A stretch of 64,000 bases of DNA from a bacterium (GTDB lineage: Bacteria > Patescibacteriota > Minisyncoccia > UBA6257 > 02-FULL-45-10c), in the NCBI GenBank assembly GCA_021786945.1, contig JAJYMK010000001.1, positions 64,794 to 128,793 of the forward strand, read 5' to 3'. The first letter of the stretch is position 1; every line of letters starts with the position of its first letter. Position numbers and translations under genes: made by a program. Below are positions 1 through 27,989 of this stretch, piece after piece. The notes beneath the pieces are model-generated. The model had not been told where the DNA came from. It saw nothing but the letters and a program-made list of their open reading frames with translations, and ran no database searches.

Positions 1-48
1 GAAATGAAATGGGTGCGATGTTAGGAAACGCAATGAAGCAATAAACCT

Positions 49-288
49 ATGAGCGAAAAAATAAACAAACAAACCGAGGAAACCATCAGCAATTTGTACG
101 AGACAAAGTATTTTGAAGCTTTGTCCGACCTGATTGCCGATGAATTGGAAATAACCAAGACTTGGTTATTAAACAAAGGATTGCCCACCGATGACATTCG
201 GCACTATCAAGGTCGAGCCGAAGGGTTGGGAGTCGTGTTGCTTAGAATAAAAGCAATTCATGACGAATTTATAAAACCAAAAATATGA
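49..288 (+). CDS. hypothetical phage protein (79 aa)
   Basis: ORF in the phage block, followed by an inverted repeat and an intrinsic terminator. Confidence 0.3.
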   Translation: MSEKINKQTEETISNLYETKYFEALSDLIADELEITKTWLLNKGLPTDDIRHYQGRAEGLGVVLLRIKAIHDEFIKPKI

Positions 289-310
289 AAACCTGATAAA
301 AACAATTTAA

Positions 311-373
311 GGAAATCGCCAAAATTTTGAGAGGTTCAGCTGGCCTCTTGAGATGGGATTTCTGGCGATTTCC
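311..373. promoter_or_regulatory. Perfect 11-bp inverted repeat (GGAAATCGCCA ... TGGCGATTTCC) flanking a ~40-nt interior that contains a CAGCTG palindrome. Possible regulator-binding or packaging-related element.
   Basis: Read directly: left arm 311-321, right arm 363-373. CTTGAGA is repeated three times nearby. Confidence 0.3.
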
Positions 374-390
374 ACATCTTGAGAAGCCAA

Positions 391-418
391 CCGAGCCTCC
401 ACAAAGGGGCTCGGTTTT
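391..418 (+). terminator. intrinsic terminator (CCGAGCC-loop-GGCTCGG followed by TTTT)
   Basis: GC stem 391-397/408-414 followed by a T-run. Confidence 0.5.
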
Positions 419-491
419 ATTAACAGACGGACGCTTTGAAAGTCTTTCGTGAGGTCAGACTGGAAAAGAACAATCCGCCATTAATACGCCT

Positions 492-1346
492 ATGGAAAAA
501 CCAAACAATTCCGGCGCCGATCCGAACGCAAAGCCAGAGACTCCGTCTTTTGACGATGCAGTCGGAAAGGAACAACCGGTCAATTCAGTTCCGTCAGGCA
601 CTCCGAGCGGAGAGCAACCTGACAAAAAACCAGACGCTAAGGGTGAACAACCTAAAGATCAATCTGGCGACACGCCCAGCGATAAGGGCGAAAGTCCCGA
701 CGGTAAAAAGTCCGAGGGCGATAAATCCTTCTGGGGAAAGTTTAAGAGCGAGGATGATGCTAAACGCTCGTATGACGAAGCCCAGACCAAGATCATCGAG
801 CAAGGAAAAGAAATCAATGATTTGAAAACCCAACATGAGAAAAATGAACAGTTTCTCTCTGTGTTGGATCGAGCATTGGTTAAAAATCCGCAATTAGCCG
901 AACAGTTAAAAGCGGTACTTGCCGAGACCATGAAGTCCGGCGAATCGGAGCCGGAGGATACGCCCGACATAGAAGCTATCCTCGACAAAAAGCTTGAGGA
1001 AAGAGAAACCAAAGCAAAAACCAAAGCGGAAATTGATAAGTGGATCGAGGAACACGAGGACTTCAAAGAACCAGAATTGGGACACAAAGTTCTCGACATC
1101 ATCGAGAAAGAAAAACTGCCATTCAATGCTCGCACGCTTCAATTGGCCTACGACTCCATCACCAAGGATGCCCAAGCCAAGAAAGCAACCGAGGAAGCTT
1201 TGAAAAAAGAGGAAGTGAAAAATCTTGAGCGTGAAAATGCATCAGGTGTCGGAGGCGGTTCACCAACTACCAAAGGCCAAACGCCCAAAGATAATCCCTT
1301 TGACGATCTTGTGGGCGAAAGTATCAACCCAAACAAAGTCAGGTAA
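492..1346 (+). CDS. putative phage scaffolding-like protein (284 aa; acidic and Lys-rich, predicted coiled coil)
   Basis: K/E/D-rich low-complexity N-terminus followed by a heptad-like helical region. It sits immediately upstream of the capsid-like gene, the typical scaffold-to-capsid order. Confidence 0.35.
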   Translation: MEKPNNSGADPNAKPETPSFDDAVGKEQPVNSVPSGTPSGEQPDKKPDAKGEQPKDQSGDTPSDKGESPDGKKSEGDKSFWGKFKSEDDAKRSYDEAQTKIIEQGKEINDLKTQHEKNEQFLSVLDRALVKNPQLAEQLKAVLAETMKSGESEPEDTPDIEAILDKKLEERETKAKTKAEIDKWIEEHEDFKEPELGHKVLDIIEKEKLPFNARTLQLAYDSITKDAQAKKATEEALKKEEVKNLERENASGVGGGSPTTKGQTPKDNPFDDLVGESINPNKVR

Positions 1347-1405
1347 TGCTTATTAGATTTGAGGTCTCGTGAGCGGTTACCGGCTTTCTAACATAAAACA
1401 AAATT

Positions 1406-2629
1406 ATGTCTGAACCAACCCATCTCATCGGAACGAGGAACACACTGACGATTGAACAATCACAGCGTATTCCCGATGTCGATGACAAAATATTCCTTCT
1501 TGAACCAGGCGAATCACCGCTCACTGCTTTCTTGACCCAAATCGGAAAGATTGGTGACGGTGGAGGCAAGTTCAAAGGAATGGCTCTCCAAAAAAGAGTC
1601 GTCTATAACCCGGAGTTTACTGAATATGAGGATCAGTACTCCGGTGTCTGGGCTCGAATTAACAACGGCGGTGGCTACCTCGTAGGTGCAACCGACATTG
1701 TTGTCGATAGTCCAGGTGCCTCAATTTTCTCCAAGTACGATCTGATTAAAAACACTCGTACCGGTGAAATCATGAGAGTCACCAATGTTAATTATTCCAC
1801 GAACACTCTAACCGTAAGTCGTGGAGCCGGTGCCACTGCGGCGGCCGCCATCAATGATGACGACTGGCTATTGGTCATCGGTCCTGCTTTTGAGGAAGGA
1901 TCAAAGTCTGGTGATTCCAACACGACCAAACTCGTGAAAGTCACCAACTACACCCAAATCTTCAAAACAAAATTCGGTGTCACTCAAACCGAGAACGCTT
2001 CGAAGCTCTATCCATCCGGTGCTCCGGGTGCGGACTTGAAGTACCTGCGTGCAAAGCATGGTATCGAGCAAGCAAAGAAAATCGAACGCGCGTATTGGTT
2101 TGGTGAAAAGAAAGAAGTCACCGGTCCCGATGGTAAACCACTCCGCTTAACTGGAGGTATTTTGGAATCCATCATCGCCGCCGGAAATGTGCAAGATGAA
2201 TCAAGCTCGAGCTTAACCGAAGCCGAATTCCGATCATTCTTGCAGAACTATGCCTTTAAGTATGGTTCAAGCGAGAAATACTTCTTCTGTGGCAATACTG
2301 TACTCGGTTATTTGGAAGGCTTTGCCACGAGCAAGATGTATGTCGTTCCAACCGATAAGACATACGGAGTAGAAATCCGTAAATTCCAGTCTTCATTCGG
2401 TACCTTGAACATTGTTCGTCACCCGATGTTCGACAATCAGTACGCCGGAATGGGAGTCGTATTGGATCTTTCAACCTTAAAGCATTGTCCTCTGAATGGT
2501 CGAGACACTTCTCTCGAAACCAACATTCAGGACAACGATGCTGACGAGGAAGTCGACCAATACAAAACCGAAGTCGGTTTGCAGAGAGTCAACTTCGAAA
2601 AGAACGCTTTGCTTAAGGGTGTTGCCTAA
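1406..2629 (+). CDS. putative phage major capsid protein (407 aa)
   Basis: Size and position directly after the scaffold-like gene. An RBS-like AAAACAAAATT precedes the ATG. No specific motif was recognised, so the call is by synteny only. Confidence 0.45.
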   Translation: MSEPTHLIGTRNTLTIEQSQRIPDVDDKIFLLEPGESPLTAFLTQIGKIGDGGGKFKGMALQKRVVYNPEFTEYEDQYSGVWARINNGGGYLVGATDIVVDSPGASIFSKYDLIKNTRTGEIMRVTNVNYSTNTLTVSRGAGATAAAAINDDDWLLVIGPAFEEGSKSGDSNTTKLVKVTNYTQIFKTKFGVTQTENASKLYPSGAPGADLKYLRAKHGIEQAKKIERAYWFGEKKEVTGPDGKPLRLTGGILESIIAAGNVQDESSSSLTEAEFRSFLQNYAFKYGSSEKYFFCGNTVLGYLEGFATSKMYVVPTDKTYGVEIRKFQSSFGTLNIVRHPMFDNQYAGMGVVLDLSTLKHCPLNGRDTSLETNIQDNDADEEVDQYKTEVGLQRVNFEKNALLKGVA

Positions 2630-2733
2630 ACCTGACCAAGGCTCTGCTCTGACTCGCTGGCCTCCACTCTGTGGAAGCCAGGAGTAAGGGCGGATGCCAG
2701 ATAAAAATTAAAAACTTAATTAATAAAACTTAT

Positions 2734-3090
2734 ATGGCTAAATTTAATTCCCATATCAAAAGACTCAAGATCGTCCTTAAACCGGCTATGCCGATATTTG
2801 AGGGTGGATTAAAAATCGGCGATCAGCCGGGAGTTTACGCTCTGTTCGAAGATGGTCAATTTGAGACCAAGGATGAGGAAATCATCAAACAACTTGAGGG
2901 CTTAGACACATTCAAAATAGATTTTTGGCGTGTGTCTGGTGAGTCCAGTCCAGTCGAGGACACTACAGTCGACAAAGACTTTGTGAAGCTAACCAAAAAA
3001 GAGCTTCAATCTCTGGCAAAAGAAAAAGGTGTTGAGGTCGACGGCACTGAAACAAAAGAAAGACTGGTCGAGCTTTTGACCGACAAATAA
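2734..3090 (+). CDS. small phage protein with a C-terminal Rho-N/SAP-like helix-extension-helix motif
   Basis: ORF track begins at 2671, but 2671-2733 is AT-rich intergenic-looking sequence; in-frame ATG at 2734 (MAKFNSH...). The C-terminus KKELQSLAKEKGVEVDGTETKERLVELL resembles a Rho_N/HeH motif. Confidence 0.4.
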   Translation: MAKFNSHIKRLKIVLKPAMPIFEGGLKIGDQPGVYALFEDGQFETKDEEIIKQLEGLDTFKIDFWRVSGESSPVEDTTVDKDFVKLTKKELQSLAKEKGVEVDGTETKERLVELLTDK

Positions 3091-3123
3091 AACCTTAAGG
3101 GGTCGATAATCTAAAACAAACTT

Positions 3124-3903
3124 ATGCCAATCGTATCAGCAGACTTAAAAGAATATAAATCGTCAGCAACCAATTCTGACGGTGCTGGAATTTCGGCGAC
3201 TGAAGTAGTCGACAATACCGATAATAACCTGTTCACCGACATAACTGGTGACGAAGCGACTGCCGGTGGCACTGAGTATCGAAAGATATTCAGGAAAAAT
3301 ACCCATGCAACGCTTACTTGGCAAAACATAGTCTCGTGGCTATTAAGCCAACCAACCAATTCCGCCTTATCGTTCGGTTTTGGTTTGGATCATGCAGATG
3401 ATGCAGATGGTGCTCAAGGAAACATGTCGGCGTTCGGGGCAAATGCCGTTGTCGCTGTGGTATCCGATGGTGCAGACACCAGACAACTAACCGTTGTCGG
3501 CGAGGATGCTTCCGGAAACAGACAGACCGAAACATTAACTTTGAACGGTACAACCGAAGTGGTCGGATCGCTTACATTTTCCAAAGTGTATGCGGTTTAT
3601 GCCAACTCACTCTCCGCTTCAAGATCAGTGACTATTAAACAAGGTGCCGGAGGTACATCAAGAGGAACTATCGGAACGAATAAAAAGATTTGTTTCCTTT
3701 GGTTCGGAAAGAGATATTCCGCCGGTTCATTGGTCAACGCCGAGGGTGGCGATATGGCCAGCAAAGCAACCGGTCTGAAGTGTGGAGATGTCGCACCTGC
3801 CGGAAACTTCGGACTATGGTATCGCATTACTTGGCCAGCTGGCGCTGGTGCAGTAACTGCCACGACAACCCAAGTGAAATCCGAGGGTGACACTGCGGCC
3901 TAA
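3124..3903 (+). CDS. hypothetical phage structural protein (259 aa; Gly/Ala/Thr-rich, possible head decoration or Ig-like)
   Basis: ORF in the structural block; composition only. Confidence 0.35.
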   Translation: MPIVSADLKEYKSSATNSDGAGISATEVVDNTDNNLFTDITGDEATAGGTEYRKIFRKNTHATLTWQNIVSWLLSQPTNSALSFGFGLDHADDADGAQGNMSAFGANAVVAVVSDGADTRQLTVVGEDASGNRQTETLTLNGTTEVVGSLTFSKVYAVYANSLSASRSVTIKQGAGGTSRGTIGTNKKICFLWFGKRYSAGSLVNAEGGDMASKATGLKCGDVAPAGNFGLWYRITWPAGAGAVTATTTQVKSEGDTAA

Positions 3904-3919
3904 AAGAAATTAAAAAGCT

Positions 3920-5473
3920 ATGGCTAAAACTTTCTTAACAAAAAAGAATAACGCCAAAAGCACAACCACGGACAATCCATTGCTTTCGGGTGCGACTGTC
4001 CTCAATGTGCAGACCGGTGATGGGGTGAAGTTTCCATCGGCACCATTCCACGCCACGCTTTACTCAAGCGATCCAAGTGTGGGAGAAATTGTGAAAATAA
4101 CAACGATCGTAACCGATCAATTCACAATTGAACGAGCCAAAGAAAACACCACTGCCCAACAATGGCCTCAAGGTACACGCCTTGAACTTTTGGTGACAGC
4201 CAAGCTTTTTGACGACTTCCAAACAAGAACCGAAGTAATCGTAGCGACAGACGGATCGGGCGACTATAACTGCGACGGCACGGCCGATCAAACAGAGATT
4301 AATGAAGCTATAAGCAATCTGCCAGCCGGTGGCGGAATCGTAAGAATCAAGAAAGGAACTTATAACCTGACTGGTGTCGTTGAGATCTTAAAGAGCAATG
4401 TCATTCTCGAGGGCGAAGGGACAGCAACACTTTTGCGTGTCGCAAACTCTGCCAACTTGGGAGATGTTGTGAGAATTGGAAATGGTGGAAGTGTCAGCTA
4501 CACCAACATCACGGTCCGAGACTTTATGATCGACGGCAACCAAGCCAATCAGACATCGGGTGCCAATAGTCCTCTCGTGCTTTGGGGAACTGCATCGTAT
4601 AAGCACAGCAAACTGACAATAGAAAACTTATGGCTTACTGGTGCGAAACAAGATTGCTTAAAAGTCATTGCCATTGAGGATAGTGTAATAAAAAATTGTT
4701 ACATCTATTCAAACACCGGAACAGCAATCGGATTATTCACCAGCTCTCAATACATCAGCATCATTGGTAATGTGCTGGCTTCAAATTCTTACGGAATATA
4801 CGACAACGCTTGCAACTACAACACCATCACCGGAAATGTGATCCGAAATAATGGCTACGGCTTTTATGTAAACAGCGGGTGGCGAGAAGTATTCACAGGC
4901 AACATGGTGTTCACCAGTACAAACTACGGGGTCTATCTCGTTGGTGCTCAAAGAGTGGCCGTAACTGGAAATCACTTCTACGGAGATAGCTGGAGTATTG
5001 TAGTTGGCAATAGTACCAATGCCACTAAATACAATGTGATCACTGGAAACACGATCACATATCCTACCAGCCAAGGCATTGCCCTCTACTACGGTTCGGG
5101 TACGACAGTCAGCAATGTTATAAGCGGAAACCACATCTTCGGTGCCGGTGGACATGGGATATATCTTTATGGATCGTCCTTCAACACAATCACCGGAAAT
5201 GCGATTGATAATGCTTCGAGAAATGCAAACAATACCTCGAACAGCATCTACCTATCGAACAACGGCTCAGTCTATTCAACCTACAATGTGATCTCGTCAA
5301 ACAATCTTCATGCCACGCAAACTAACAAGTCCGCCTATCACATCAGAGAGCAAAGTGCGAGCGATGATTATAACTTAGCAATCGGCAATATTTGCAATGG
5401 TGGGGTCACAGCTCAAATCAGCTTACAAGGAACCAATTCAGTGAGAGGAACTAACATACCGGCTTCCGGTTAA
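3920..5473 (+). CDS. right-handed parallel beta-helix (pectate-lyase fold) protein, a putative tail spike or fiber with a possible glycan depolymerase function
   Basis: Many PbH1-type repeats (e.g. IIGNVLASNSYGIYDNACNYNTITGNVIRNNGYGFYV; ITGNTITYPTSQGIALYYGSG; ITGNAIDNASRNANNTSNSIYL). Confidence 0.65.
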   Translation: MAKTFLTKKNNAKSTTTDNPLLSGATVLNVQTGDGVKFPSAPFHATLYSSDPSVGEIVKITTIVTDQFTIERAKENTTAQQWPQGTRLELLVTAKLFDDFQTRTEVIVATDGSGDYNCDGTADQTEINEAISNLPAGGGIVRIKKGTYNLTGVVEILKSNVILEGEGTATLLRVANSANLGDVVRIGNGGSVSYTNITVRDFMIDGNQANQTSGANSPLVLWGTASYKHSKLTIENLWLTGAKQDCLKVIAIEDSVIKNCYIYSNTGTAIGLFTSSQYISIIGNVLASNSYGIYDNACNYNTITGNVIRNNGYGFYVNSGWREVFTGNMVFTSTNYGVYLVGAQRVAVTGNHFYGDSWSIVVGNSTNATKYNVITGNTITYPTSQGIALYYGSGTTVSNVISGNHIFGAGGHGIYLYGSSFNTITGNAIDNASRNANNTSNSIYLSNNGSVYSTYNVISSNNLHATQTNKSAYHIREQSASDDYNLAIGNICNGGVTAQISLQGTNSVRGTNIPASG

Positions 5474-5477
5474 AACT

Positions 5478-6947
5478 ATGTTCAACGCTTATCAATTCAA
5501 CACGGCTCAACTAAACAACACCGGTTCAAAGCCAATCGCTAAAGCCGTGAGTTATGCGTTGGATGTATTCGGACTGGTAAGCAAACAGATCACATACTTG
5601 CTTGATAGTTTCGTCACAATTTCGCATGCCAGAACATATATCCTCGACATCAAGAACTTAATGGCAAAAATAGAAACCTACATTCTCGATGCTTTCGGAC
5701 TTTCAAACAGGATGACTGCCTACAAGTTTGATGTTAGGAGTTTGATTGTCAAAATGGAATCTTATGTTTTGGATATATTTCAAACAATCACAAAAAGCCT
5801 GACATACAGATTCGACATCAGAATCATCGTTGTCAAAACAGAAAGATACATCCTCGATGTGTTTGGATTAATTGCGAAACTGATCGCTTATAAACTCGAT
5901 ATCAGAAACCTTGCCACGAAACTTGAGACTTATGTTTTAGATATTCGCCTAAAGGTGAATAAAACTGCATCATACCTCTTCGACATAATTGGTGGTGCAT
6001 GGCTTGGATTGGTTTATAAGTTGGATGTTAGAAACATCACCACAAAGAGTATGGCGTACCGGTTTGATGTTCTGATCACACTCGGCCGAACGATAACCTA
6101 CAAGTTTGATTCTTTTCTCACGGCTCTCAAACAGTCGATATACAAATGGGATATAAGAAACACGGCTCAGAAGTTAATGGCCTATGTGATGGACATCAGA
6201 AATACGATTGCCAGATTGGAAACATACAAGCTTGATGTTAGAAACTTGGCCACCAAGATTGAAAGATATTTGATCGACATCAGAAGTCTCACATCCAAAG
6301 CTTGGACTTACATCTTGGATATAAGAAATATTGCCGGTAAGACTGAAAGTTATTTGCTCGACATTAAAAACCTTATTGCCAAAAACACCCGATACTTGTT
6401 TGACTCGCTGATCACTGTTTTGAGACAGACAATCTATCTCTTGGACATCAGGAGTTTAACAACCAAAGCAATGCGATATGTGTTGGACATTCAAGTGCTG
6501 ATTGCCAAGTTGGAAACTTATAAATTAGACATCCGCAACCTTGCCACAAAGATCGAAAGATATGTACTGGATATCAGAAGTTTGATTGCTAAAACCGAAA
6601 CCTATCTCTTGGACATCCTAAGCAAGATTACGAAATGGTGGACTTATAAATTAGACATTCTGATAACCACCGGCAAGCAATGGACATACTTATTCGACAT
6701 TCGAGGATTGATTGCGAAAGTCTGGAGTTATCGCTTCAGGATTTGGAAAATTATTGAGGGTGTAAAAATAGCGGTTGAATTCTTATCTGCAAAACTGTCG
6801 GTCCTAATGCTTAACGCCAGAGAGTCGCTTGGATTAGTTAATGCTAGGACAAACATTGAGGTCAAAAATGCCAAACAAGATCAATCATTGCAATCAGCAA
6901 GATTGGATGTCGGTCTTGGTAAAGGCAATAAAGATATAAAACTATGA
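5478..6947 (+). CDS. phage protein made almost entirely of ~28 tandem 14-residue repeats (consensus Y-x-L-D-I-R-N-L-A-T-K-x-E-x); probable fibrous tail or receptor-binding shaft
   Basis: Translation shows strict 14-aa periodicity from roughly residue 25 to 415 (YKLDIRNLATKLET / YVLDIRSLIAKTET / YLLDIKNLIAKNTR ...). Placement between the tail spike and further structural ORFs supports a fibre role. Confidence 0.6.
   Translation: MFNAYQFNTAQLNNTGSKPIAKAVSYALDVFGLVSKQITYLLDSFVTISHARTYILDIKNLMAKIETYILDAFGLSNRMTAYKFDVRSLIVKMESYVLDIFQTITKSLTYRFDIRIIVVKTERYILDVFGLIAKLIAYKLDIRNLATKLETYVLDIRLKVNKTASYLFDIIGGAWLGLVYKLDVRNITTKSMAYRFDVLITLGRTITYKFDSFLTALKQSIYKWDIRNTAQKLMAYVMDIRNTIARLETYKLDVRNLATKIERYLIDIRSLTSKAWTYILDIRNIAGKTESYLLDIKNLIAKNTRYLFDSLITVLRQTIYLLDIRSLTTKAMRYVLDIQVLIAKLETYKLDIRNLATKIERYVLDIRSLIAKTETYLLDILSKITKWWTYKLDILITTGKQWTYLFDIRGLIAKVWSYRFRIWKIIEGVKIAVEFLSAKLSVLMLNARESLGLVNARTNIEVKNAKQDQSLQSARLDVGLGKGNKDIKL
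5553..6723 (+). repeat. 42-bp in-frame degenerate tandem repeat array (~28 units) inside CDS 5478..6947
   Basis: Recurrent tacaagcttgatgttagaaacttggccacc-type units visible in the nucleotide sequence. The repeat is coding, not CRISPR. Confidence 0.6.
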
Positions 6948-7258
6948 GCGTAAAAATTGTTCAAGACGATACAAGACCACCACTGGAATTCAATCTGACT
7001 CAAGATGGTTCACCTGTAGATTTAACCGGATGCACGGTCAAATTCTACATGAAAGATGCCACCAGCGGATCAGTAAAAATCAGTGGTAGTACTTGCGTGA
7101 TAACCGATGCCACCAAAGGTAAATGCAAATACCTCTGGACTTCATCGGATACCAACACAGCCGGAACTTATGTGGGAGAGGTTGAGGTCACTTTTCCTGA
7201 CGGAAAGATTCAGACCGGCTATAAACAAATCGGAATCACAATAAGAGCTGACATCTAA
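6944..7258 (+). CDS. hypothetical phage structural protein (104 aa)
   Basis: ORF overlapping the upstream stop codon (ATGA); beta-rich composition. Confidence 0.35.
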   Translation: MSVKIVQDDTRPPLEFNLTQDGSPVDLTGCTVKFYMKDATSGSVKISGSTCVITDATKGKCKYLWTSSDTNTAGTYVGEVEVTFPDGKIQTGYKQIGITIRADI

Positions 7259-7262
7259 AACT

Positions 7263-7895
7263 ATGACCAGAGGCGATATAAAAACAGCAATAAAAAACGA
7301 AGTCGATGATCAGACCGTTGACTCAACACTGCTCAACACATGGGTTCAAAGAGCCGATGAGAAAGTGCAGAGTTGGCGTCCATCGGATGATCGAGATCAG
7401 ACATTTGATTATTGGGATTATCTCAAAACCGAACAGCCGTTCACAACGGTTGCCAATCAAGAGAAATATCCAGTGCCAGAAAATTATCGTGCGTTCATCG
7501 AACTAAGAATCGGAACGGATAAAACACCTTATAAGCTGATCGACTTCCGAGACAGAGACAAGTTTGATGACCATGCGGTGTATATGCTGGGCGGTTATTT
7601 CTACCCGATAGCGACACCAACAATTGATGGTAATGCCATGAGGTTTGTCTTTGTCCGAATATCCGATGACTTTGCGTCCGACAATGACGAACCGGAGGTC
7701 GAAAAACTCTACCACCAAGCCTATGTCGAGTGGGGTAAGAAAATGTACTACAACCAACAAGGCGACACTGAATTGGAACGACAGGCCGAGAATAACTTCG
7801 AGAGAACAATGATTGGTAAATGGCGTGATCAAGAATTAGCCAGAATGTCTTCAGCTTCGGATCAAGCCGAAATTCCAAGAAGTAGTCTTGTATAA
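7263..7895 (+). CDS. hypothetical phage protein (210 aa)
   Basis: ORF in the structural block. Confidence 0.35.
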   Translation: MTRGDIKTAIKNEVDDQTVDSTLLNTWVQRADEKVQSWRPSDDRDQTFDYWDYLKTEQPFTTVANQEKYPVPENYRAFIELRIGTDKTPYKLIDFRDRDKFDDHAVYMLGGYFYPIATPTIDGNAMRFVFVRISDDFASDNDEPEVEKLYHQAYVEWGKKMYYNQQGDTELERQAENNFERTMIGKWRDQELARMSSASDQAEIPRSSLV

Positions 7896-7904
7896 ACAAC
7901 AACT

Positions 7905-9596
7905 ATGTCACTACCAAAGAAAATCTGGAAAACATCACAATTCCACAAAGGCATCTCAAACCTTAATGCCGAGGGAACCTTTTGGTTTTCAAACGGATTG
8001 GAATTTGATCAGTATCCTCCGTATTTGAAAGTGGCAAATAAATTTTTCAAAGAAAGTGACAGCGTAAGCGTGCCGACATTGAATCAGCCGACTTATATGT
8101 GTTATTTCAATTATCGATATTATTGCGTCAATCATGATGACGGAAAGATTTTTGAAAATAATTACAATAGCTGGACTGAAGTACACGACAGCGTAAACAT
8201 CTGGGGAGGAAGCGGATTATATGCCGATGACGATTATATGTACTACGCCGGAAGTACTTGGGTCGGTCGCTTTGATAAAAACACATGGGTGGACAATTGG
8301 CAGTCGTTTAATGTGAACACGGCATTTGACGATGTACCAATCACCAAGTTTTTGAAATTCATTTGCTTTGGAAATAAAAACTATTTAGCCACATGGGATA
8401 CAGGGGCAAGCTCTTGGAATCCCAACAAGCTAACGCTACCGACTGGCTATGTGATTATGTGGCTTGCACCGCTTACCGACTATCTCGTCATTTCCGCTCA
8501 CCATCCGACATTCGGATCAGCTTTGTTTTTCTGGGATGGATATTCGCAAACTTATAATCGTGTTTTACAACTAACCCAAACTCAAAGCTTGGCTGGTTGC
8601 GTTGATAAAAATGTTTTGTATTTCCTAACAAGGGACGGCTGGATCTGCCGATTTAATGGTTCGGGAATAGAAAAACTTAATAAGTTTCCTGAAATGAATC
8701 ATGAGGACTACATATCACTGAAAGCTGGATGCATGAAAGTTTATCAAGGCACAATTCTCATCGCTAAAGGATCAAATACCTACGATGTGAGTCGCCGAAA
8801 TCAATATTGCGGAATTTGGTGCTACAACCCATCAACTAACGCTCTTTATTTCAAGCACAGAATATCAACCGGTGCAGTCAATCATGTGACTCCAGGATTA
8901 GCGGTAATGTATGGACTTTATGTCGATAACAATACGATTCGAGTAATGTACAGCGACGGTAATAAATCAATCATCGATGTAAACCATGACACTGGAACAT
9001 TCAGACCTTATGAATTCGGGGCGTACTGGATCAGTCCGCTGATAGACAATGATCCATATCTTCGCAAGAGATGGAAACAAATAATTTTGAACTTTTTCAA
9101 ACCAATGCCTAATAGCAGTTTTGCGAGGTTTGAACTTAAGTACAACACCACTGAACAGAATATAAGAGATCAAGCGAAATATGTGACTGGCGGAGGTTCG
9201 GATTACTTTACCGTTTCTTATTTTAGTAGCTCGTATGAGGTTGGTGACGAAGTGATTATTCTTGCCGGTCCGGCCGCCGGACAGATTAGGCACATAAAAA
9301 GCATGGACAATGCAACAAAAACAATTTATCTGGATGAAACCCTGTACTATGTCGGGACTTCACAAGGATATTTGCAAGCCGGAGATTATGTGGCGATCAC
9401 ACCTTTTAAACGGCTTGGAACGATTAAAGGAAATGAAAATCAAGGCAAGGTAAATAAAATGCTTCGGTTTAATGCGAGGTCAAAAAAGATTCAATTCAAG
9501 GTCGAAGTCTGGAGTAATTCTGGATACTCGGGCGAATGGGACATGGGATTAAAAGATGTGTCCGCCGTATTCGTTCCGGACAGAATAATTAAATAA
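7905..9596 (+). CDS. hypothetical large phage structural protein (563 aa; Tyr/Trp/Asn-rich, possibly tail or baseplate)
   Basis: ORF size and position; no motif recognised. Confidence 0.4.
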   Translation: MSLPKKIWKTSQFHKGISNLNAEGTFWFSNGLEFDQYPPYLKVANKFFKESDSVSVPTLNQPTYMCYFNYRYYCVNHDDGKIFENNYNSWTEVHDSVNIWGGSGLYADDDYMYYAGSTWVGRFDKNTWVDNWQSFNVNTAFDDVPITKFLKFICFGNKNYLATWDTGASSWNPNKLTLPTGYVIMWLAPLTDYLVISAHHPTFGSALFFWDGYSQTYNRVLQLTQTQSLAGCVDKNVLYFLTRDGWICRFNGSGIEKLNKFPEMNHEDYISLKAGCMKVYQGTILIAKGSNTYDVSRRNQYCGIWCYNPSTNALYFKHRISTGAVNHVTPGLAVMYGLYVDNNTIRVMYSDGNKSIIDVNHDTGTFRPYEFGAYWISPLIDNDPYLRKRWKQIILNFFKPMPNSSFARFELKYNTTEQNIRDQAKYVTGGGSDYFTVSYFSSSYEVGDEVIILAGPAAGQIRHIKSMDNATKTIYLDETLYYVGTSQGYLQAGDYVAITPFKRLGTIKGNENQGKVNKMLRFNARSKKIQFKVEVWSNSGYSGEWDMGLKDVSAVFVPDRIIK

Positions 9597-9600
9597 ACAT

Positions 9601-9798
9601 ATGACTAAATTCACATTGGAAAAAATAGATCAAGAGAATGTAAAAAAGACAGACATTCGTGAGGATGTCTCAACGGTGAACATTCCAGCTTTAGAAAAAC
9701 AAAAGTCCGAACTGGAACAACAGATCACCTCAATGCAAAAACAACTCGACCAAATAAACGAGGTCTTGGCCGAGTATAAGAAACTTCCACAAACATGA
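9601..9798 (+). CDS. small coiled-coil phage protein (65 aa)
   Basis: ORF with a heptad-like segment LEKQKSELEQQITSMQKQLDQINEVLAEY. Confidence 0.3.
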   Translation: MTKFTLEKIDQENVKKTDIREDVSTVNIPALEKQKSELEQQITSMQKQLDQINEVLAEYKKLPQT

Positions 9799-9998
9799 AC
9801 AACTCACCAAACCAAGATCAACCATTTGATCCGAATCTGGGTTCGATACTCAATCTCCTCCGTGATATTCCGATATTGAACTCACCGCCATCAGATACAC
9901 CAAGAACGCCAATCAGCTTCGCTTTATACGACAACGGTGGCACAAGACGGTTCTATATATTTTTTAACGGAGTGTGGAGGTATGTAACGCTAACTTAA
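9795..9998 (+). CDS. hypothetical small phage protein (67 aa)
   Basis: ORF overlapping the upstream stop codon. Confidence 0.25.
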   Translation: MNNSPNQDQPFDPNLGSILNLLRDIPILNSPPSDTPRTPISFALYDNGGTRRFYIFFNGVWRYVTLT

Positions 9999-10004
9999 AA
10001 TCAT

Positions 10005-11333
10005 ATGGCTCAAATTACCATACAAAAAGGTCAAACATTATCGGGAATCGCCAAACAGCAAGGCACCACTGTTGATGCGATCATGAAAGCCAATCCGACC
10101 ATCAAGAATGCCAACCTGATATATGCAGGTTCTTCCTTAAATTTGCCCGGATCACCAACTTCACCCGTTGTTGCCCCTAAGGCGAGCGTTCCGAGCCCAA
10201 GTCCCACCGTGACACCTTCTTCGACCGTAACACCGCCCGTTGCCCAAAATTCGAGCCCGGGGACAAGCTCTGTCCCAGCCAAAAGCACCCTTTATGGGAC
10301 GGAAGTGCCTTCTAACACATCTTTGCTTAAACAATACCGGTCCGAACTAGGTCTCGATTCAACGCTTAAAAGCATGCAGGATAGCCAGACTTCCTACCTC
10401 GATACTCTCAAAAATTTGCCGAAAAAATCTGACATCTATCAGCAAGAAAGAACTAAGAGAGGGATTGATACGATGCAAACAAACTTAAAAAGTTTGGATG
10501 ATCGATTGGCCACAATGGAGGAAGCAATCAATAGTTCGGAAAAAGATATCCGAGATAGGACTGTCGCAAGTAATGGCTTGGTAACCGAGAGCCAAACACA
10601 AAGACTTGTAGCTTCCGAAAAGCAACCGCTGATTGATGAATACAGAAAATTATTGAATGAAAGAAATAGGCTTGCGACTGAAATGGGTACGGCTGATGCA
10701 TCCGCAAAAGAAATGGCTGGAATGCAATATGAGGATTCAACACTACCTTTGACCGTAGCAGAAAAAACTCTTGGATTCCAAAAAGATCAATACAGTGTGC
10801 TCGGTGATATTTTAGGCCAAGTATACGGTGCCTCAGAAAAAGATGTCGCCAATTTAATTGATTCTGCTAAATACGGAAAAGAACAGGAAAAGAAAGATGC
10901 TCAAGATGTGATAGATCGTGCCTTGAAACTTGCCCAGCTGGCCAATGATACTCCAGCCGGAACCGTGCTTGATGTGGGAGGAAATAAAGTAGTCGGACTT
11001 AAAGGAAAAACTGGAAGCGGTTCAGGAACCGACGGCAATGATGTTGAAGCTTACGCTTTGGAACTCTTAAACAATCCAAACTTCTCAATCAGTAATGTGC
11101 CTCAAAGTATTCGAGGACAAGTGATCACAAAAAGAGATCAGATTAAAGCTGAAGCGGAAACTTCGATGGCAAACAGTACGCCAGCGATGATAGACAACAC
11201 TCCTCCGATAACCGCACAACAATTCGGGGCTGGTTTACAGGATGTATTCACAAAGCAAATACCGGGAGTGGCAAAAAATGTGTGGGGTGGAACGAAAGGA
11301 TTCTTCAAAGGTCTTTTCGGTAGCGGAAATTAA
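10005..11333 (+). CDS. LysM domain-containing phage protein with a Pro/Ser/Thr-rich linker (442 aa)
   Basis: N-terminus IQKGQTLSGIAKQQGTTVDAIMKANPTIKNANLIYAGSSLNLPG matches the LysM consensus, followed by a PSPT-rich low-complexity linker. Confidence 0.65.
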   Translation: MAQITIQKGQTLSGIAKQQGTTVDAIMKANPTIKNANLIYAGSSLNLPGSPTSPVVAPKASVPSPSPTVTPSSTVTPPVAQNSSPGTSSVPAKSTLYGTEVPSNTSLLKQYRSELGLDSTLKSMQDSQTSYLDTLKNLPKKSDIYQQERTKRGIDTMQTNLKSLDDRLATMEEAINSSEKDIRDRTVASNGLVTESQTQRLVASEKQPLIDEYRKLLNERNRLATEMGTADASAKEMAGMQYEDSTLPLTVAEKTLGFQKDQYSVLGDILGQVYGASEKDVANLIDSAKYGKEQEKKDAQDVIDRALKLAQLANDTPAGTVLDVGGNKVVGLKGKTGSGSGTDGNDVEAYALELLNNPNFSISNVPQSIRGQVITKRDQIKAEAETSMANSTPAMIDNTPPITAQQFGAGLQDVFTKQIPGVAKNVWGGTKGFFKGLFGSGN

Positions 11334-11338
11334 AACTT

Positions 11339-14300
11339 ATGGCATATCTTAAAGACCCAAAAACTGGAAAATATATAGTCACTGATACAGCACCAACTGC
11401 AACAGTGAAAACTTCTGTCCCAACTTCTGCTGGGAACATTAAGTACGGTAAAAATGCCCAAGGCGGATACACAAAAATTGAGACGGACACATCTGCTGGA
11501 ACTTCTGCAAAACCAAACATCACCACAGTGGCCGGACTTAAAGATTACGCCTTAAAAAATAATGTTGATATTTCTGATGCCCAACCCCAAGAATCAACTC
11601 TGCAAAAAATTCTCAATGTCTTAAATACCGGTGCGTACGCTGTGGGAGGACTTATAAGTGGAAAAGGAATCGTTAAGGGAATCCAAGAACACACATTGCC
11701 ATCCGAAGCGTTAGGAATAAAAAACAAGATTGGAGGTTTTGTTGCTGATGTCCTGCTTGATCCAACCACTTACATAACATTCGGTTATGGTAGCGGTGCG
11801 AAACTTGCAACAAAAGCTGGCGAGGTTGTGCTTAGTAAAACAGGAACCAGTTTGCTTAAAAAATCCATCATTGAACTTGGCGAGCAAGGTGCGAGAAAAG
11901 CTCTTGCTGAAAAAGTTTTGCAAGAAGGAGGCGAAAAGTTATTAGCTAAAGGCGGTTTGAAATTTGCTGGAACTGAAATATTGCCCCGTAAGGTCGTAAC
12001 CGCACCGTTTAAGATCGCAGACACTCTTGTAGAAAAAACACCTGTGGTCGGAAAATTATATCAAGGTGCAAAAGACTTGGCCGGTAAAGCATTTGTACCA
12101 TTCAAATCAATTAAAGATATGCCGGGTGGAATAGGCCAACAGTATGTCGATAAATTTTCTGACTTCAGTAAAGCAACAAGATCGGAAGTCGGCAAAGCTG
12201 TTGAGGAAGTATCGGCTCTCGGAAAAACAGCTAAGAAAGAACTGGGAGATAAAGCTGGAATTGAGGTCGGGAAAATACTTGAGAATGTACCTAAACCTCA
12301 AATGCCACTGCCGAGAGCCCTTGAACCAATCAAAGACATGGTCAAAGGTGTTGATCTTGGGGACATAAAAGGAGTCGACCGAAATAATATCGTAGACATG
12401 AAAGTATTTGGGTCTTCTGTTGAGGGGAAACTAAAACCGAATGATGTTGATGTTTTTGTGAAAGTAAAAGACGGCTCGATGAAGTTTAAAAATGCTGGCG
12501 GTCTTCCAAGCCCGATAGTCATCAAGAAAGGAAAAGTCCAATACTTTATCATGCCTGAAAGCCAAGGCGATGAATTACTGGATGCAATGCTTTATACCGG
12601 CAGAAAAGATCAGAGTCGCTTGTATTCCGGAACGGCCGTAAAAGTTCCAAAACCTTACTGGAACGGAATGATGAAAGTAAACGATGATACTGCACAAGCT
12701 GGAAATAAAGTTATAAACGAGATCACTGACTACATAAGAGGCCAGCATAAATCATTTGCCACTAAAGAAAAAGAAAGAGGTCTCCTCGACTACACTTTGC
12801 CTGATTATCTTCGTCACTACCTGACACCAGAGGGTCGTGATTTCTTACAGAAAGGAAGTGCAAATATTACTGGGGAGTTAAACAAACCATTGCGAGTAAA
12901 AACACCATTTGCCAAAGAAAGAGAGCTGAACGACACGATCGGTGGAATCAATAAATACTTCCAAAAACAATACGGTGTCAGCCAGATGTTCGAAAGCGAT
13001 GCGTTCAAAGCATTCGCGGCTCGAAAAGCCGAACACATCAAAGCCGTAAATACCTACGACTTCCTGACCAATGTTGGAAAAGAATTCGGACGACCAGCAG
13101 AGGTAATGACTAAAGAAATCAAGAATCCAGTAACTGGAAAAATGATAACCAAAGAGATCACGAAGCCAATCTACGAAAACGGAATCAAATACATTGAAAG
13201 TTCAGTACCACAACTTAAAGGAACGCTTTTGCCAGAGCAGATTGTAAAGCATGTTGATGACACTTATAAAGTTTTAACCAACGAGGAAGCAACGAAAAAG
13301 TTTCTCGGTCTTTATGATAAAGTTTTGAATTTTTGGAAAGGATCGGTCACTGGATGGTTTCCAGCTTTCCACACACGAAACTCAATCGGTGGAATTTTTA
13401 ACAACTGGATTGCTGGTGTAAAAAGTCCGACTCGCTATCTGCAAGCTGATCAAATTGCCAGAGGTGCTGAGGGTGCAATAACCACTCAGATCGGGACGAA
13501 ATACACATATAGCCAGATAAGAGATGTTGCCAACAAACTGGGAGTCGTGGGACAGCCGGGTTATTTGGATGTCATGAAAGAAGTAGAAAAGGATATCGGA
13601 AAAGGTCCGGTGGCAAAACTGATGGATACACCTAAAAAAGCGATGGAGATTGTGGAAAACAGACTTCGTTTGCCTTTATTTGTTGATCGCTTAATTAAAG
13701 GCGATGCACCTGAACAGGCGGCCAAGGCCGTGTTCCAATTCCACTTCGACTACGCACCGGAAGCATTAGCACCTTTTGAACAGAACATAATGAAGCGTTT
13801 GTTGCCATTTTATAAGTGGACTCGTGGCAACATTCCACTTCAGCTTGAGCAAATGGTAAAACAACCCGGAAAGTATGCTGGAATCGGGAAAGCCGTACAG
13901 GGATTGCAGTCAGACAAAGAAAAAGCCAAAGAGGAATTTTCAATACTGCCTCCTTATATGCGAGAGGGTTTGCCAATCAGACTCGGCGAAAAAGGCGGAT
14001 TCTCACAATACCTATATGGACTGGGGTTGCCGGTCGAGGATGTAAACAGACTATATAAAGGAAGTGCCAAAAGAACACTGGCCAGTTTTATTGGTGAATT
14101 ATCTCCGCTTCTTAAATATCCAATCGAAGCTGGAACAGGACAAAACTTATTCACTGGTGAACCGATAGAAGCAAACAACAATGTCTATCCATTCATGAAT
14201 AAAGTCCCAGGACTCCGTGACTGGCTTGAAGTGACAGAAAAGAAAAATAAGGATGGATCAACGGGTTATGTCGCCAATGCTTATAAACTCCACTTCCTGA

Positions 14301-14524
14301 ACACTGCGTTGGGGAGATTCTACACTACAGCTGGAAAACTGACCGATGATAAAACATCCGGTGCGGTTAAGTTTTTGTACGGACTGATTGGTGCAAAAGC
14401 AAAATCCGTAGACATCGAAAAAGAAAAGTTTTGGCGTGATCAAGAACAACAAGACAGTCTTGAACAAGCTTTGCAAAATAGAGGTCTCCTAAAACAGTAT
14501 CAGAGGGCATATGTCCCAAAATAA
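11339..14524 (+). CDS. very large phage protein (1061 aa) with an embedded minimal nucleotidyltransferase (pol-beta superfamily) motif
   Basis: Segment MKVFGSSVEGKLKPNDVDVFVKV fits the GS-x(9-13)-DxD minimal NTase signature. A Gly/Ala/Lys-rich N-terminus precedes it. Position after the LysM gene and before the lysis genes. Confidence 0.45.
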   Translation: MAYLKDPKTGKYIVTDTAPTATVKTSVPTSAGNIKYGKNAQGGYTKIETDTSAGTSAKPNITTVAGLKDYALKNNVDISDAQPQESTLQKILNVLNTGAYAVGGLISGKGIVKGIQEHTLPSEALGIKNKIGGFVADVLLDPTTYITFGYGSGAKLATKAGEVVLSKTGTSLLKKSIIELGEQGARKALAEKVLQEGGEKLLAKGGLKFAGTEILPRKVVTAPFKIADTLVEKTPVVGKLYQGAKDLAGKAFVPFKSIKDMPGGIGQQYVDKFSDFSKATRSEVGKAVEEVSALGKTAKKELGDKAGIEVGKILENVPKPQMPLPRALEPIKDMVKGVDLGDIKGVDRNNIVDMKVFGSSVEGKLKPNDVDVFVKVKDGSMKFKNAGGLPSPIVIKKGKVQYFIMPESQGDELLDAMLYTGRKDQSRLYSGTAVKVPKPYWNGMMKVNDDTAQAGNKVINEITDYIRGQHKSFATKEKERGLLDYTLPDYLRHYLTPEGRDFLQKGSANITGELNKPLRVKTPFAKERELNDTIGGINKYFQKQYGVSQMFESDAFKAFAARKAEHIKAVNTYDFLTNVGKEFGRPAEVMTKEIKNPVTGKMITKEITKPIYENGIKYIESSVPQLKGTLLPEQIVKHVDDTYKVLTNEEATKKFLGLYDKVLNFWKGSVTGWFPAFHTRNSIGGIFNNWIAGVKSPTRYLQADQIARGAEGAITTQIGTKYTYSQIRDVANKLGVVGQPGYLDVMKEVEKDIGKGPVAKLMDTPKKAMEIVENRLRLPLFVDRLIKGDAPEQAAKAVFQFHFDYAPEALAPFEQNIMKRLLPFYKWTRGNIPLQLEQMVKQPGKYAGIGKAVQGLQSDKEKAKEEFSILPPYMREGLPIRLGEKGGFSQYLYGLGLPVEDVNRLYKGSAKRTLASFIGELSPLLKYPIEAGTGQNLFTGEPIEANNNVYPFMNKVPGLRDWLEVTEKKNKDGSTGYVANAYKLHFLNTALGRFYTTAGKLTDDKTSGAVKFLYGLIGAKAKSVDIEKEKFWRDQEQQDSLEQALQNRGLLKQYQRAYVPK

Positions 14525-14756
14525 AAATATGGATAAAACAGAGTATCAAAATCAAATACAAGACGAACGACTTGATCGAGTCGAGAAAACCGTAAACGAA
14601 ATCAAAGATAATCATCTCGTTCACCTACAAGAGGATGTAACGAAAGTCGGGACTGATGTCGACTGGCTCAAGCGTTTCTTTTGGATCTTGGCTACCGCAT
14701 CCGTGGGAGGTCTTATAACCGCCTTAATTAATTTACTAATAACAATCGATAAATAA
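14511..14756 (+). CDS. putative holin (81 aa; single C-terminal TM helix)
   Basis: C-terminal hydrophobic segment FFWILATASVGGLITALINLLITI; lies immediately upstream of the amidase endolysin. Confidence 0.45.
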   Translation: MSQNKNMDKTEYQNQIQDERLDRVEKTVNEIKDNHLVHLQEDVTKVGTDVDWLKRFFWILATASVGGLITALINLLITIDK

Positions 14757-14761
14757 AAACT

Positions 14762-15331
14762 ATGAATATCATTCAAAAGAAATCACCAAACTTCTGGGCT
14801 GGTCGCAACAGTTATCGTCCGGAAGCAATAGTCATTCACATTATGGATGGCACGCTGGCCGGAACCGATGCGTGGTTTACAAACCCATCTTCGCAAGTAA
14901 GTGCTCACTATGGCATCGGAAAGAATGGCGAAGTGCATCAGTATGTAAAAGAGGAAGATACTGCTTGGCACGCTGGACGAATAGACACACCAACTTGGAA
15001 GTTTATTAAACAAAAGGTAAACCCCAACCTCTATACAATCGGAATTGAACACGAGGGAAAGCCTGACGACATATGGACTGAAGCAATGAAACAAGCGAGT
15101 GCGATGATGATCCACGAGATCTGCCAACGCTGGCAAATACCGGTCGACCGTGATCACATCGTTGGCCACTTTGAGATTTACTCAAAGAAACCGAATTGTC
15201 CGGCAACTGATAAGCGGATATTGGACGAGCTTGTTGCCCTTGCCAGTGATCACACACCAAATACCTCAGTCGAGGATGGTGTGAGAAAGATTGAGGAGGG
15301 GCTGGCCATTATAAAGAAAATAATTTATTAA
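14762..15331 (+). CDS. N-acetylmuramoyl-L-alanine amidase (Amidase_2/PGRP fold) endolysin
   Basis: IVIHIMDGTLAGTDAWFTNPSSQVSAHYGIGKNGEVHQYVKEEDTAWHAG matches the Amidase_2 N-terminal region; C..H..C zinc-ligand-like residues are present. Confidence 0.8.
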   Translation: MNIIQKKSPNFWAGRNSYRPEAIVIHIMDGTLAGTDAWFTNPSSQVSAHYGIGKNGEVHQYVKEEDTAWHAGRIDTPTWKFIKQKVNPNLYTIGIEHEGKPDDIWTEAMKQASAMMIHEICQRWQIPVDRDHIVGHFEIYSKKPNCPATDKRILDELVALASDHTPNTSVEDGVRKIEEGLAIIKKIIY

Positions 15332-15334
15332 CCT

Positions 15335-15553
15335 ATGACAACACCACAAAAAGAAGCATTAAAGCACCTAGCGATCGTTTTCCTTTACTCCGGAGTCTCA
15401 TCAATCCTACCGATCGTTTTGGCTTATGTAGAGCATGATCCACGCTGGACACTGCTGATACCACTTATAAACTCGGCTTGGTATGCCGTGAGTCGATACC
15501 TCAAGGAAAGTAAGTTAATTGAGGAGTCCGACACCAAGGGAGACCAATTTTAG
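15335..15553 (+). CDS. small two-TM membrane protein (72 aa), possibly a lysis accessory (holin or antiholin-like)
   Basis: Two hydrophobic helices; last gene of the phage block. Confidence 0.3.
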   Translation: MTTPQKEALKHLAIVFLYSGVSSILPIVLAYVEHDPRWTLLIPLINSAWYAVSRYLKESKLIEESDTKGDQF

Positions 15554-27961: not shown

Positions 27962-27989
27962 AATCCCCCGATACCGGGGGATTTTTTTA
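27961..27989. terminator. intrinsic terminator (ATCCCCCG-atac-CGGGGGAT followed by T7), located between convergent genes
   Basis: Perfect 8-bp stem 27963-27982. Confidence 0.6.

Follow-up and report, generated by a model that had tools for sequence, protein, structure and literature searches.

We analyzed a 64,000-nucleotide stretch of contig JAJYMK010000001.1 (positions 64,794 to 128,793, forward strand; Patescibacteriota assembly GCA_021786945.1), hereafter the window, whose left end carries an apparent prophage with a gene for a protein built almost entirely of 14-residue repeats. This repeat-protein gene (5478-6947) begins with ATG, is translated without internal stops into 489 amino acids (aa) plus a stop, and is the sole open reading frame (ORF) of at least 60 aa on either strand over that span. 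Stacking the translation from residue 26 revealed 29 consecutive, gap-free units of 14 residues (residues 26-431), the last of them degenerate, and all 28 unit-to-unit spacings were exactly 14 residues. Position 1 of the unit was Tyr in 29/29 cases, position 4 was Asp in 28/29, and position 11 was Lys/Arg in 26/29; Leu/Phe occupied position 3 in 26/29 units, Ile/Val position 5 in 25/29, and Asn/Gly/Ser position 7 in 19/29. The self-identity of the protein was 0.35-0.38 at lags of 14, 28, 42, and 56 residues, compared with ~0.05 at other lags. A preliminary description of this gene had proposed a strict 14-residue periodic array over almost the whole protein, with the consensus Y-x-[LF]-D-[IV]-R-[NS]-L-x-x-K-x-E-x and about 28 tandem units. 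The stacking and lag analyses bore out the periodicity, and both the consensus and the coordinates proved correct; the array is real at the protein level, where it counts 29 units, but it has no tandem-repeat counterpart in the DNA.

At the nucleotide level, Tandem Repeats Finder returned no array between positions 4500 and 8000, even at a minimum score of 30. Unit-to-unit nucleotide identity averaged 46% with a maximum of 71%, and the longest exact direct repeat within the gene was 17 nucleotides (nt). A repeat search yielded only copies that were 60-80% identical, with all listed spacings but one being multiples of 42 nt, and detected no conserved repeat/spacer structure in the region. Identity at a lag of 42 nt was 0.49 and 0.53 at the first and second codon positions and 0.29, near chance, at the third. 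Because the DNA units have diverged and third codon positions are near chance, the periodicity is kept by selection on the protein. The ratio of nonsynonymous to synonymous substitution rates (dN/dS) was 0.08-0.14 in comparisons with the four remaining distinct sequences of 29 units, which marks the gene as real and as evolving under purifying selection. Two identities at the DNA level were considered and rejected: a slippage-prone tandem repeat or satellite, for which near-identical copies would be expected, and an array of clustered regularly interspaced short palindromic repeats (CRISPR), which is at odds with a continuous ORF under purifying selection and no repeat/spacer structure. Confusion with a CRISPR or satellite array and collapse during assembly had both been anticipated for this gene. 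Since the DNA units have diverged, however, there is neither any such likeness nor a reason for collapse, and independent assemblies reproduced the gene base for base: an ENA metagenome assembly matched it at 1470/1470 nt, with one mismatch over 12.6 kb, and the identical protein was called on six contigs from several assemblies. The finding is thus more interesting at the protein than at the DNA level.

The repeat-protein gene lies within a compact structural module (Table 1), in which it directly follows a β-helix spike gene, as the preliminary description had recognized. The SU10-type major capsid protein marks the element as a podophage-like prophage; it is no more than 30% identical to any GenBank phage capsid protein. 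Residues 10-123 of the spike matched the N-terminus of PDB entry 8jov, a 'putative tail fiber protein' (E=1e-6), and PHROG tail-fibre families matched the same N-terminal region; a literature search for 8jov returned nothing relevant. The adaptor gene is followed by genes for a 563-aa protein without a family match, a LysM protein, a 1061-aa protein, and an amidase. From ~15.7 kb, the window is ordinary bacterial chromosome (YceG, ABC transporters, tRNAs, IleRS, ArgRS, ClpB, PolA) of lower GC content, mostly 0.32-0.39 (15700-64000) vs 0.40-0.46 in the prophage (1-15400), with the junction between the Amidase_2 gene (14762-15331) and YceG (15729-16709). This flanking chromosome identifies the element as an integrated prophage at the left end of the window.

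Table 1. Features of the prophage structural module and of the repeat-protein gene (window coordinates)
Feature	Position	Strand	Remarks
SU10-type major capsid protein	1406..2629	+	Pfam SU10_MCP E=1e-39
259-aa protein, unknown function, phrog_13135-like	3124..3903	+	
Spike, 517 aa, right-handed beta-helix, tail-fibre-type N-terminal domain	3920..5473	+	Pfam Beta_helix E=3.8e-28
Repeat-protein gene	5478..6947	+	4 nt 3' of spike stop; own stop overlaps next start (ATGA)
N-terminal 25 residues MFNAYQFNTAQLNNTGSKPIAKAVS	5478..5552	+	Conserved above shaft level
Array, 29 units x 14 aa (42 nt each), residues 26-431	5553..6770	+	Gap-free
Four-unit block, residues 72-127	5691..5858	+	29-unit clade only
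Conserved C-terminal 58 residues	6771..6944	+	Entropy 0.60 bits; 9-residue pseudo-repeat from residue 437
104-aa BppU_N-like (immunoglobulin (Ig)-like) protein	6944..7258	+	Pfam BppU_N E=1.2e-12
SU10-type head-to-tail adaptor	7263..7895	+	Pfam SU10_adaptor E=1.3e-16

Several further observations concern the ends of the gene and the surrounding DNA. The sequence AAAACTATG is common to both repeat-gene junctions (5466-5480 and 6937-6950), right around the start codon, and no obvious Shine-Dalgarno motif was present at either junction; such sequences are consistent with translational coupling along the operon. The C-terminal pseudo-repeat (residues 437-489, window 6786-6944) follows the pattern [NS]-A-[KR]-x-x-phi-x-phi-x in 5-6 copies read from the translation (SAKLSVLML, NARESLGLV, NARTNIEVK, NAKQDQSLQ, SARLDVGLG, and KGNKDIKL), a second, shorter periodicity that caps the 14-residue array. 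On a 125-kb ENA contig matching the window (L058:456-4743), genes for two DNA methyltransferases, the C-terminal domain of an NgoFVII-type restriction enzyme, a ParB_N protein, and a Fic protein cluster upstream of the region that matches the window start, ahead of 548- and 624-aa genes located where terminase and portal genes usually lie; the 10 kb of this contig that were examined showed neither an integrase nor a repressor. In the chromosomal part of the window, an isoleucyl-tRNA synthetase-like gene of 1177 aa (27987-31520, reverse strand) contains a complete histidine-phosphatase domain (His_Phos_1, residues 500-687) that splits the class I synthetase catalytic domain into two parts, an architecture shared by three other assemblies (L055-L057).

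To place the gene among its orthologues, we searched first with the adjacent genes and afterwards with an alignment of three sequences, which recovered 44 related loci. Many lie in large contigs (0.2-1.3 Mb) of metagenome-assembled genomes labelled Candidatus Saccharibacteria, Parcubacteria, or Paceibacterota, including one 742-kb chromosome, while some labels (Gammaproteobacteria, Kiritimatiellae, an archaeon) look doubtful. Going by these sequence labels, the element looks like a member of a widespread prophage lineage of bacteria of the candidate phyla radiation (CPR), and they suggest an SU10-like prophage of Saccharibacteria/Parcubacteria. Gene order was the same in all 37 loci with flanks (259-aa gene, spike, repeat gene, 104-aa gene, adaptor), and wherever the 104-aa gene was included (36 loci), its gap to the repeat gene was -4.

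Copy number was counted in 41 complete copies, the window included. Thirty-two encode 433 aa (25 units) and seven encode 489 aa (29 units), with single copies of 447 aa (26 units) and 363 aa (20 units), so that all length differences are exact multiples of 14 residues. The 29-unit and 25-unit forms differ by one four-unit block (window residues 72-127), which lies between two similar 'YILDxFGL' units; as a diverged tandem duplicate of the following block it is a weak candidate, at the 7th-10th percentile of background similarity. In an alignment of 35 orthologues, the units are positionally orthologous, each with its own conserved identity, and the 'YxxDIIGGA' unit and the pair TLGKTITYKFDSFL are nearly invariant, indicating that the array is old and its register fixed. 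The invariant 'YxxDIIGGA' unit (window 5973-6014) is also the sole odd unit of the window family. Array length was conserved even between sequences with saturated synonymous sites. Variation in repeat number by slippage had been proposed at the outset, and the number does vary among relatives (20, 25, 26, and 29 units); however, ~46% DNA identity with no exact repeat longer than 17 nt leaves no substrate for replication slippage, and 32/41 copies keep 25 units. Copy number changes rarely, by insertion or deletion (indel) of whole units, and not by slippage.

The repeat gene has also been exchanged independently of its neighbours. In locus L045 (CAYMVY010000001.1), the flanks are 94-100% identical to those of the window (259-aa protein 100%, spike 94%), whereas its repeat protein has 25 units and shares only 58% identity with that of the window. 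This mosaic implies a recombination breakpoint at the junction between the spike and the repeat gene. The sole 26-unit form (L044) accompanies a divergent spike (48% identity). An influence of repeat number on host range had been suggested at the outset; this pairing and the independent exchange of the gene are the sole hints of it.

Comparison of divergence rates revealed that the repeat protein is the fastest-diverging protein of the structural module: its identity to the L001 and L002 orthologues was 71% and 55%, respectively, compared with 83-97% and 69-91% for its neighbours, with the spike at 91% and 74%. Within the unit, positions 1 and 4 were fixed among orthologues (entropy 0.01 and 0.19 bits), positions 6, 8, and 11 were conserved, and positions 2, 10, and 12-14 were the most variable (1.26-1.56 bits). 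Mean column entropy was 0.67 bits in the N-terminus, 0.98 in the repeat region, and 0.60 in the C-terminus, with M1, N3, Y5, N8, L12, N13, and T15 being invariant in the N-terminus. Conserved termini around a fast-evolving shaft are consistent with a virion fibre, and the combination of a conserved skeleton, variable and putatively exposed positions, and mosaicism would be typical of host-facing virion proteins.

Database searches with the repeat protein returned little. In Pfam, it matched just two coiled-coil families, both below threshold, and did not match Beta_helix; in PHROGs, the sole match was phrog_10172 (unknown function, E=3.5e-6), with no stretch significant alone. There was no match in PDB with either the single sequence or a repeat profile at E up to 10, and none among GenBank phages by tblastn. 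Word-indexed searches of 5.8 billion proteins, as well as an exact look-up, essentially missed the protein and its 53-91% identical orthologues, the index holding only N-terminal fragments of the window family (P0007, P0012, P0017, and P0030), although the assembly index has the gene called on six contigs. Repeat-rich proteins may be systematically under-represented in word-indexed protein databases or hard to retrieve from them. A literature search for a 14-residue repeat in tail fibres did not find the motif, and Pfam has no family for it, as judged by scans of the window protein and its relatives.

We then searched 1.84 billion representative proteins exhaustively with HMMER, using a 42-column profile made from the window's own units. 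This yielded 31 clusters at E up to 1e-3, of which four were short N-terminal fragments resembling the window family and a few were evidently spurious simple repeats. The remainder, through which the motif recurs in ~25-30 protein clusters besides the window family, are different proteins with 5-35 copies of the motif and a pooled consensus of [ALF]-x-[YFW]-D-[IV]-x-[NQG]-L-V-x-K-[DTE]-x-[TQ]. These proteins (P0003, P0004, P0006, P0008, P0009, P0011, P0013, P0020-P0025, P0027, P0028, P0031, P0032, P0001, and P0005) carry the same 14-residue motif as the window protein, phi-x-[FYW/L]-D-[IV]-x-[NQG]-x-[VI]-x-K-x-x-x, arranged in runs 5-35 units long. They differ from the window family in having an aromatic residue at position 3 rather than Tyr at position 1, and in architecture: their arrays follow LamG (P0020) or unknown large globular domains, or precede a C-terminal domain common to P0001 and P0005, whereas the window family is almost pure array. 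Some of the motif-bearing clusters matched PHROG families labelled 'tail protein', 'minor head protein', and 'virion structural protein'. The arrays of P0004, P0008, P0009, P0011, P0023, P0031, and others contain a 17-18-residue unit every ~5-9 units, with 3-4 extra residues in the turn (e.g., YDILGGLLAVAK and WDIESSATAVNK); there are none in the window family.

At the locus of the best match (P0003), which is in other respects unrelated to the window, a gene shortly upstream (L053:5276-5791) is homologous to the window 259-aa protein (BLASTP, 30% identity, E=6e-13), and Pfam and PHROG scans of the locus found nothing beyond phrog_13135. This arrangement suggests that a phrog_13135-type protein and a repeat protein form a recurring gene, and perhaps functional, partnership. 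When three other repeat proteins were compared with GenBank phages by tblastn, only matches of ~21-22% identity were obtained. A protein of Vibrio phage F86 (OZ196285.1, L061:1724-3238), annotated as 'tail sheath stabilizer' and encoded beside genes for a head-tail adaptor and for head closure, ends in a C-terminal tail in which ~12 units of 14 residues (D-T-x-I-x-W-x-x-x-x-x-phi-x-x) loosely resemble the repeat. This tail may be a distant relative or an analogue of the repeat, present in a cultured myophage, and could open a way to structural data.

For structure prediction, AlphaFold2 was run on the single sequence, which gave a long helix with a predicted local distance difference test score (pLDDT) of 43 and was uninformative, and on an alignment in which ten window units were set in register with 14-periodic runs, none overlapping, taken from elsewhere in the protein and from the database matches. 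The alignment-based model was all-β, with a best pLDDT of 63 (~70 over the first 90 residues) and a predicted template modelling score (pTM) of 0.57. Each strand begins near position 9 and continues to position 6 of the following unit, positions 7-8 being the sole regular interruption; with moderate confidence, the model describes antiparallel hairpins stacked as a ladder rather than parallel coils, every unit supplying a single strand and a single turn. Since 4+11 = 7+8, a turn at positions 7-8 would set Asp4 opposite Lys11 in every hairpin, and such cross-strand pairing would explain why both residues are invariant and exactly seven residues apart.

Sequence features of the relatives bear on the same question. 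There, 82% of Asp-to-Asp spacings were 14, with 17 being the next commonest. Among 52 longer units, Lys/Arg stood 7 residues before the next Asp in 54% and 7 residues after the unit's own Asp in 6%, which places the insertions in the turn and leaves the segment from Lys11 to Asp4 of the next unit at a fixed length. Asn and Gly together account for 40% of position 7. Of the six P0015 units scored, 83% had Pro at position 2, with P0005 alike by eye, and Gly occupied position 7 in 37% of P0011 units; a continuous helix is incompatible with these residues. A bulky aromatic residue at position 1 (window family) or 3 (other proteins) is expected of same-face i/i+2 neighbours on a strand. Taken together, the placement of insertions, Pro, and Gly in the relatives agrees with the hairpin model and argues against a helix.

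These data make it highly unlikely that the array is an α-helical coiled coil, with 14 residues as two heptads, forming for example a tail needle like P22 gp26 or SU10 gp18. Hydrophobic residues at positions 1, 5, 8, and (12) do fall into a 4-3-4-3 spacing, the single-sequence prediction gave long helices, the window protein and its relatives have Pfam coiled-coil matches, and no needle gene is evident after the 563-aa gene in the nozzle position. However, the alignment-based model is all-β while the single-sequence one is uninformative, and every one of the Pfam matches falls below the gathering threshold. The composition of the repeat region is also unfavourable to a coiled coil: Ile, Val, Thr, Tyr, Phe, and Trp, β-branched or aromatic, make up 41% of it (Pro and Cys are absent), and a conserved hydrophobic residue (Leu/Phe/aromatic) would sit at heptad position f, in addition to the Pro at 2 or Gly at 7 in many units of the homologous repeats.

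A second alternative, in which every unit would be equivalent, is a parallel β-solenoid (β-roll), monomeric or oligomeric, with one 14-residue coil per unit and a rod of ~12-14 nm. Ice-binding β-rolls built from coils of 14-15 residues are known, and solenoids typically display ladders of identical residues (Tyr, Asn). Foldseek found no significant structural neighbour of the model in PDB or BFVD (best E=0.08, template modelling (TM) score at most 0.27), and its non-significant matches were mostly β-solenoids and cross-β stacks (SV2 luminal domains, FapC/CsgA, and ice-binding proteins), a weak pointer toward such a fold. The antiparallel course of the alignment-based model speaks against it, as do the insertions, which a two-turn coil should accept at both turns but which were found only between Asp4 and Lys11. 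Moreover, positions 12-14 are rich in strand-forming Thr and not in turn-forming residues, and stacked Asp and Lys ladders are harder to explain than cross-strand Asp-Lys pairs. We regard a solenoid as rather unlikely. The preliminary description had offered a fibrous or β-solenoid shaft; a β-rich fibre remains the best reading, and the solenoid part of the proposal is not favoured by the hairpins of the model.

A homotrimeric triple β-spiral shaft of the adenovirus-fibre or reovirus sigma-1 type deserves some weight as a minor possibility. It would rise ~12 A per unit, for a length of ~31 nm (25 units) or 36 nm (29 units). In its consensus, lettered a-o, positions c, e, g, k, and m are hydrophobic, j is Pro/Gly, the g-j turn is conserved, and the inter-repeat loop is variable (PMC3150272). 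Positions 1, 3, 5, and 9 of the window unit are spaced as c, e, g, and k, a turn comes after position 5, all units would be equivalent so that odd and even unit indels are tolerated, and the hairpin secondary structure of the monomer model is compatible with such a shaft. The correspondence breaks down at the m-equivalent position 11, which is Lys/Arg in 26/29 units and not hydrophobic, and at the j-equivalent position 8, which is Gly in 1/29 units and Pro in 0/29. The period is 14 rather than 15, the relatives vary in length in the turn while the equivalent of the n-o-a-b loop has a fixed length, the window protein lacks a C-terminal globular knob, and Foldseek gave no adenovirus or reovirus fibre match.

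Several points weigh against the hairpin-ladder fibre itself. The lack of a significant Foldseek neighbour applies to it as well, and the model is a monomeric 10-unit fragment of moderate confidence (five models, pLDDT 41-63) whose coordinates were not viewed. In a strict antiparallel meander, equivalent residues of successive units would face opposite sides, which would create a 28-residue super-period; none was observed, self-identity being 0.35, 0.37, and 0.38 at lags of 14, 28, and 42, and odd-numbered unit indels exist in the 26- and 20-unit forms. Covariation analysis did not yield the predicted anti-diagonal contacts: pooled mutual information was dominated by family-specific consensus, and within the family only unit subtypes were recovered. 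In most other architectures, a large globular domain lies on the N-terminal side of the repeat, which inverts the polarity usual for fibres. Finally, virion association, the oligomeric state, and the attachment site are predicted features of the protein.

Weighing this evidence, we consider the gene product to be probably, though by no means securely, a fixed-length virion fibre shaft of a previously undescribed 14-residue β-repeat in an SU10-like prophage of CPR-type bacteria. Its fixed place in the structural module and the quantized, positionally conserved units are observations; the hairpin topology would follow from the moderate-confidence model and the sequence arguments above. Each unit would contribute one long β-strand, starting at position 9 and ending at position 6 of the next unit, together with a tight turn at positions 7-8, a site enriched in Asn, Gly, and Ser. 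Stacking of successive units would produce an antiparallel hairpin ladder, in which Asp4 and Lys11 would face each other across each hairpin as salt bridges and Tyr1, Leu/Phe3, Ile5, and Ile/Val9 would form hydrophobic contacts. The result would be a rigid rod whose length is set by unit number, 25 in most relatives and 29 here. Cross-β ladders rise ~0.48 nm per strand. The rod would measure ~12-14 nm if it is a cross-β ladder, or ~31-36 nm at the β-spiral rise per residue taken from PMC7565637.

Oligomerization, the point of attachment, and any receptor contact can be sketched by inference. By analogy with SU10 fibres, the short conserved N-terminus of 25 residues may be a docking segment that holds the rod on the tail. 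The conserved C-terminal 58 residues may form a tip, serve as an oligomerization element, or bind a partner, for which the translationally coupled 104-aa Ig-like protein is a candidate. The exposed, fast-changing positions 2, 10, and 12-14 would face the host surface.

That the product is a virion fibre at all finds support in the position of its gene, which in 37/37 loci lies in the late structural module between the β-helix spike and the SU10 adaptor, as is generally expected of a phage fibre gene. The same position, between capsid and adaptor genes, is one where head-fibre and decoration genes also occur, and virion incorporation is itself a prediction; one related repeat protein matched the PHROG label 'minor head protein', and the Vibrio phage protein with the loosely similar 14-residue tail is a neck protein. 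The gene might accordingly encode a head decoration instead of a tail fibre, or a lysogen surface or accessory protein outside the virion, acting in adhesion or superinfection exclusion. Tight packing in the late structural operon at all loci, with a 4-nt gap upstream and a 4-nt overlap downstream, argues against a non-virion role; no signal peptide or membrane segment was evident in the translation by eye (no formal test), and accessory (moron) genes usually vary in presence, whereas the repeat gene was found in every locus. We judge these non-fibre roles very improbable and retain the virion fibre shaft as the preferred reading.

Many viruses construct thin, very stable fibres from short-period β-repeats, and every new type of repeat (β-spiral, triple β-helix, β-bracelet) proved to be a distinct fold. 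The 14-residue motif has neither a Pfam family nor a solved relative, and could already be defined as a new repeat family. That it is also a genuinely new fibrous fold is possible but doubtful. Equally tentative is the wider proposition that a 14-residue Tyr/Asp/Lys hairpin ladder with Asp-Lys pairs is an unseen fibrous β fold that serves as a length-quantized shaft in diverse uncultured viruses and faces the host here. The window family is unusually clean, with 25 or 29 perfect units and none irregular in length, which makes it a good structure target and suits it for testing how unit number sets rod length. The prophage occurs in many Saccharibacteria- and Parcubacteria-labelled genomes, where virus-host recognition is almost unexplored; a new host-facing fold, if confirmed, would be a first structural handle on virus recognition of ultra-small, largely uncultured CPR cells. 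For annotation, the locus illustrates that a strict protein repeat can escape DNA repeat finders, and that such a repeat family can be missed almost wholly when 5.8 billion proteins are searched by a word index.

Among known systems, SU10 (Kuravirus) shares its capsid and adaptor families (Pfam SU10_MCP and SU10_adaptor) with the window element. SU10 fibres attach to the adaptor or nozzle through short N-terminal segments (PMC9509320), and the tail of the window element would be expected to bear fibres held in a similar way. The SU10 fibres and needle (gp12/gp13 long fibre, gp16 short fibre, and gp18 needle) have no sequence similarity to the window protein, and their resolved or modelled parts (long-fibre N-terminus, needle, and short-fibre domains) are coiled coil or T4-like β domains with no 14-residue array. 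Gene order also differs from that of SU10, in that fibre genes precede the adaptor in the window element. The Orsay virus delta β-bracelet fibre, to which we claim no relationship, has an 8-residue period and is pentameric, with (V/L)xVxV strands and 3-residue loops. The triple β-spiral of adenovirus fibre and reovirus sigma-1 likewise builds a viral fibre shaft from short (~15-residue) in-frame repeats. It resembles the window array in its alternating hydrophobic residues in the first strand, its tight turn, and its second hydrophobic element, as well as in having repeats that are degenerate in sequence and strict in length, while the window repeat is set apart by its invariant Asp/Lys pair. 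The window protein may therefore work like a β-spiral shaft while falling outside that family by the features that define it.

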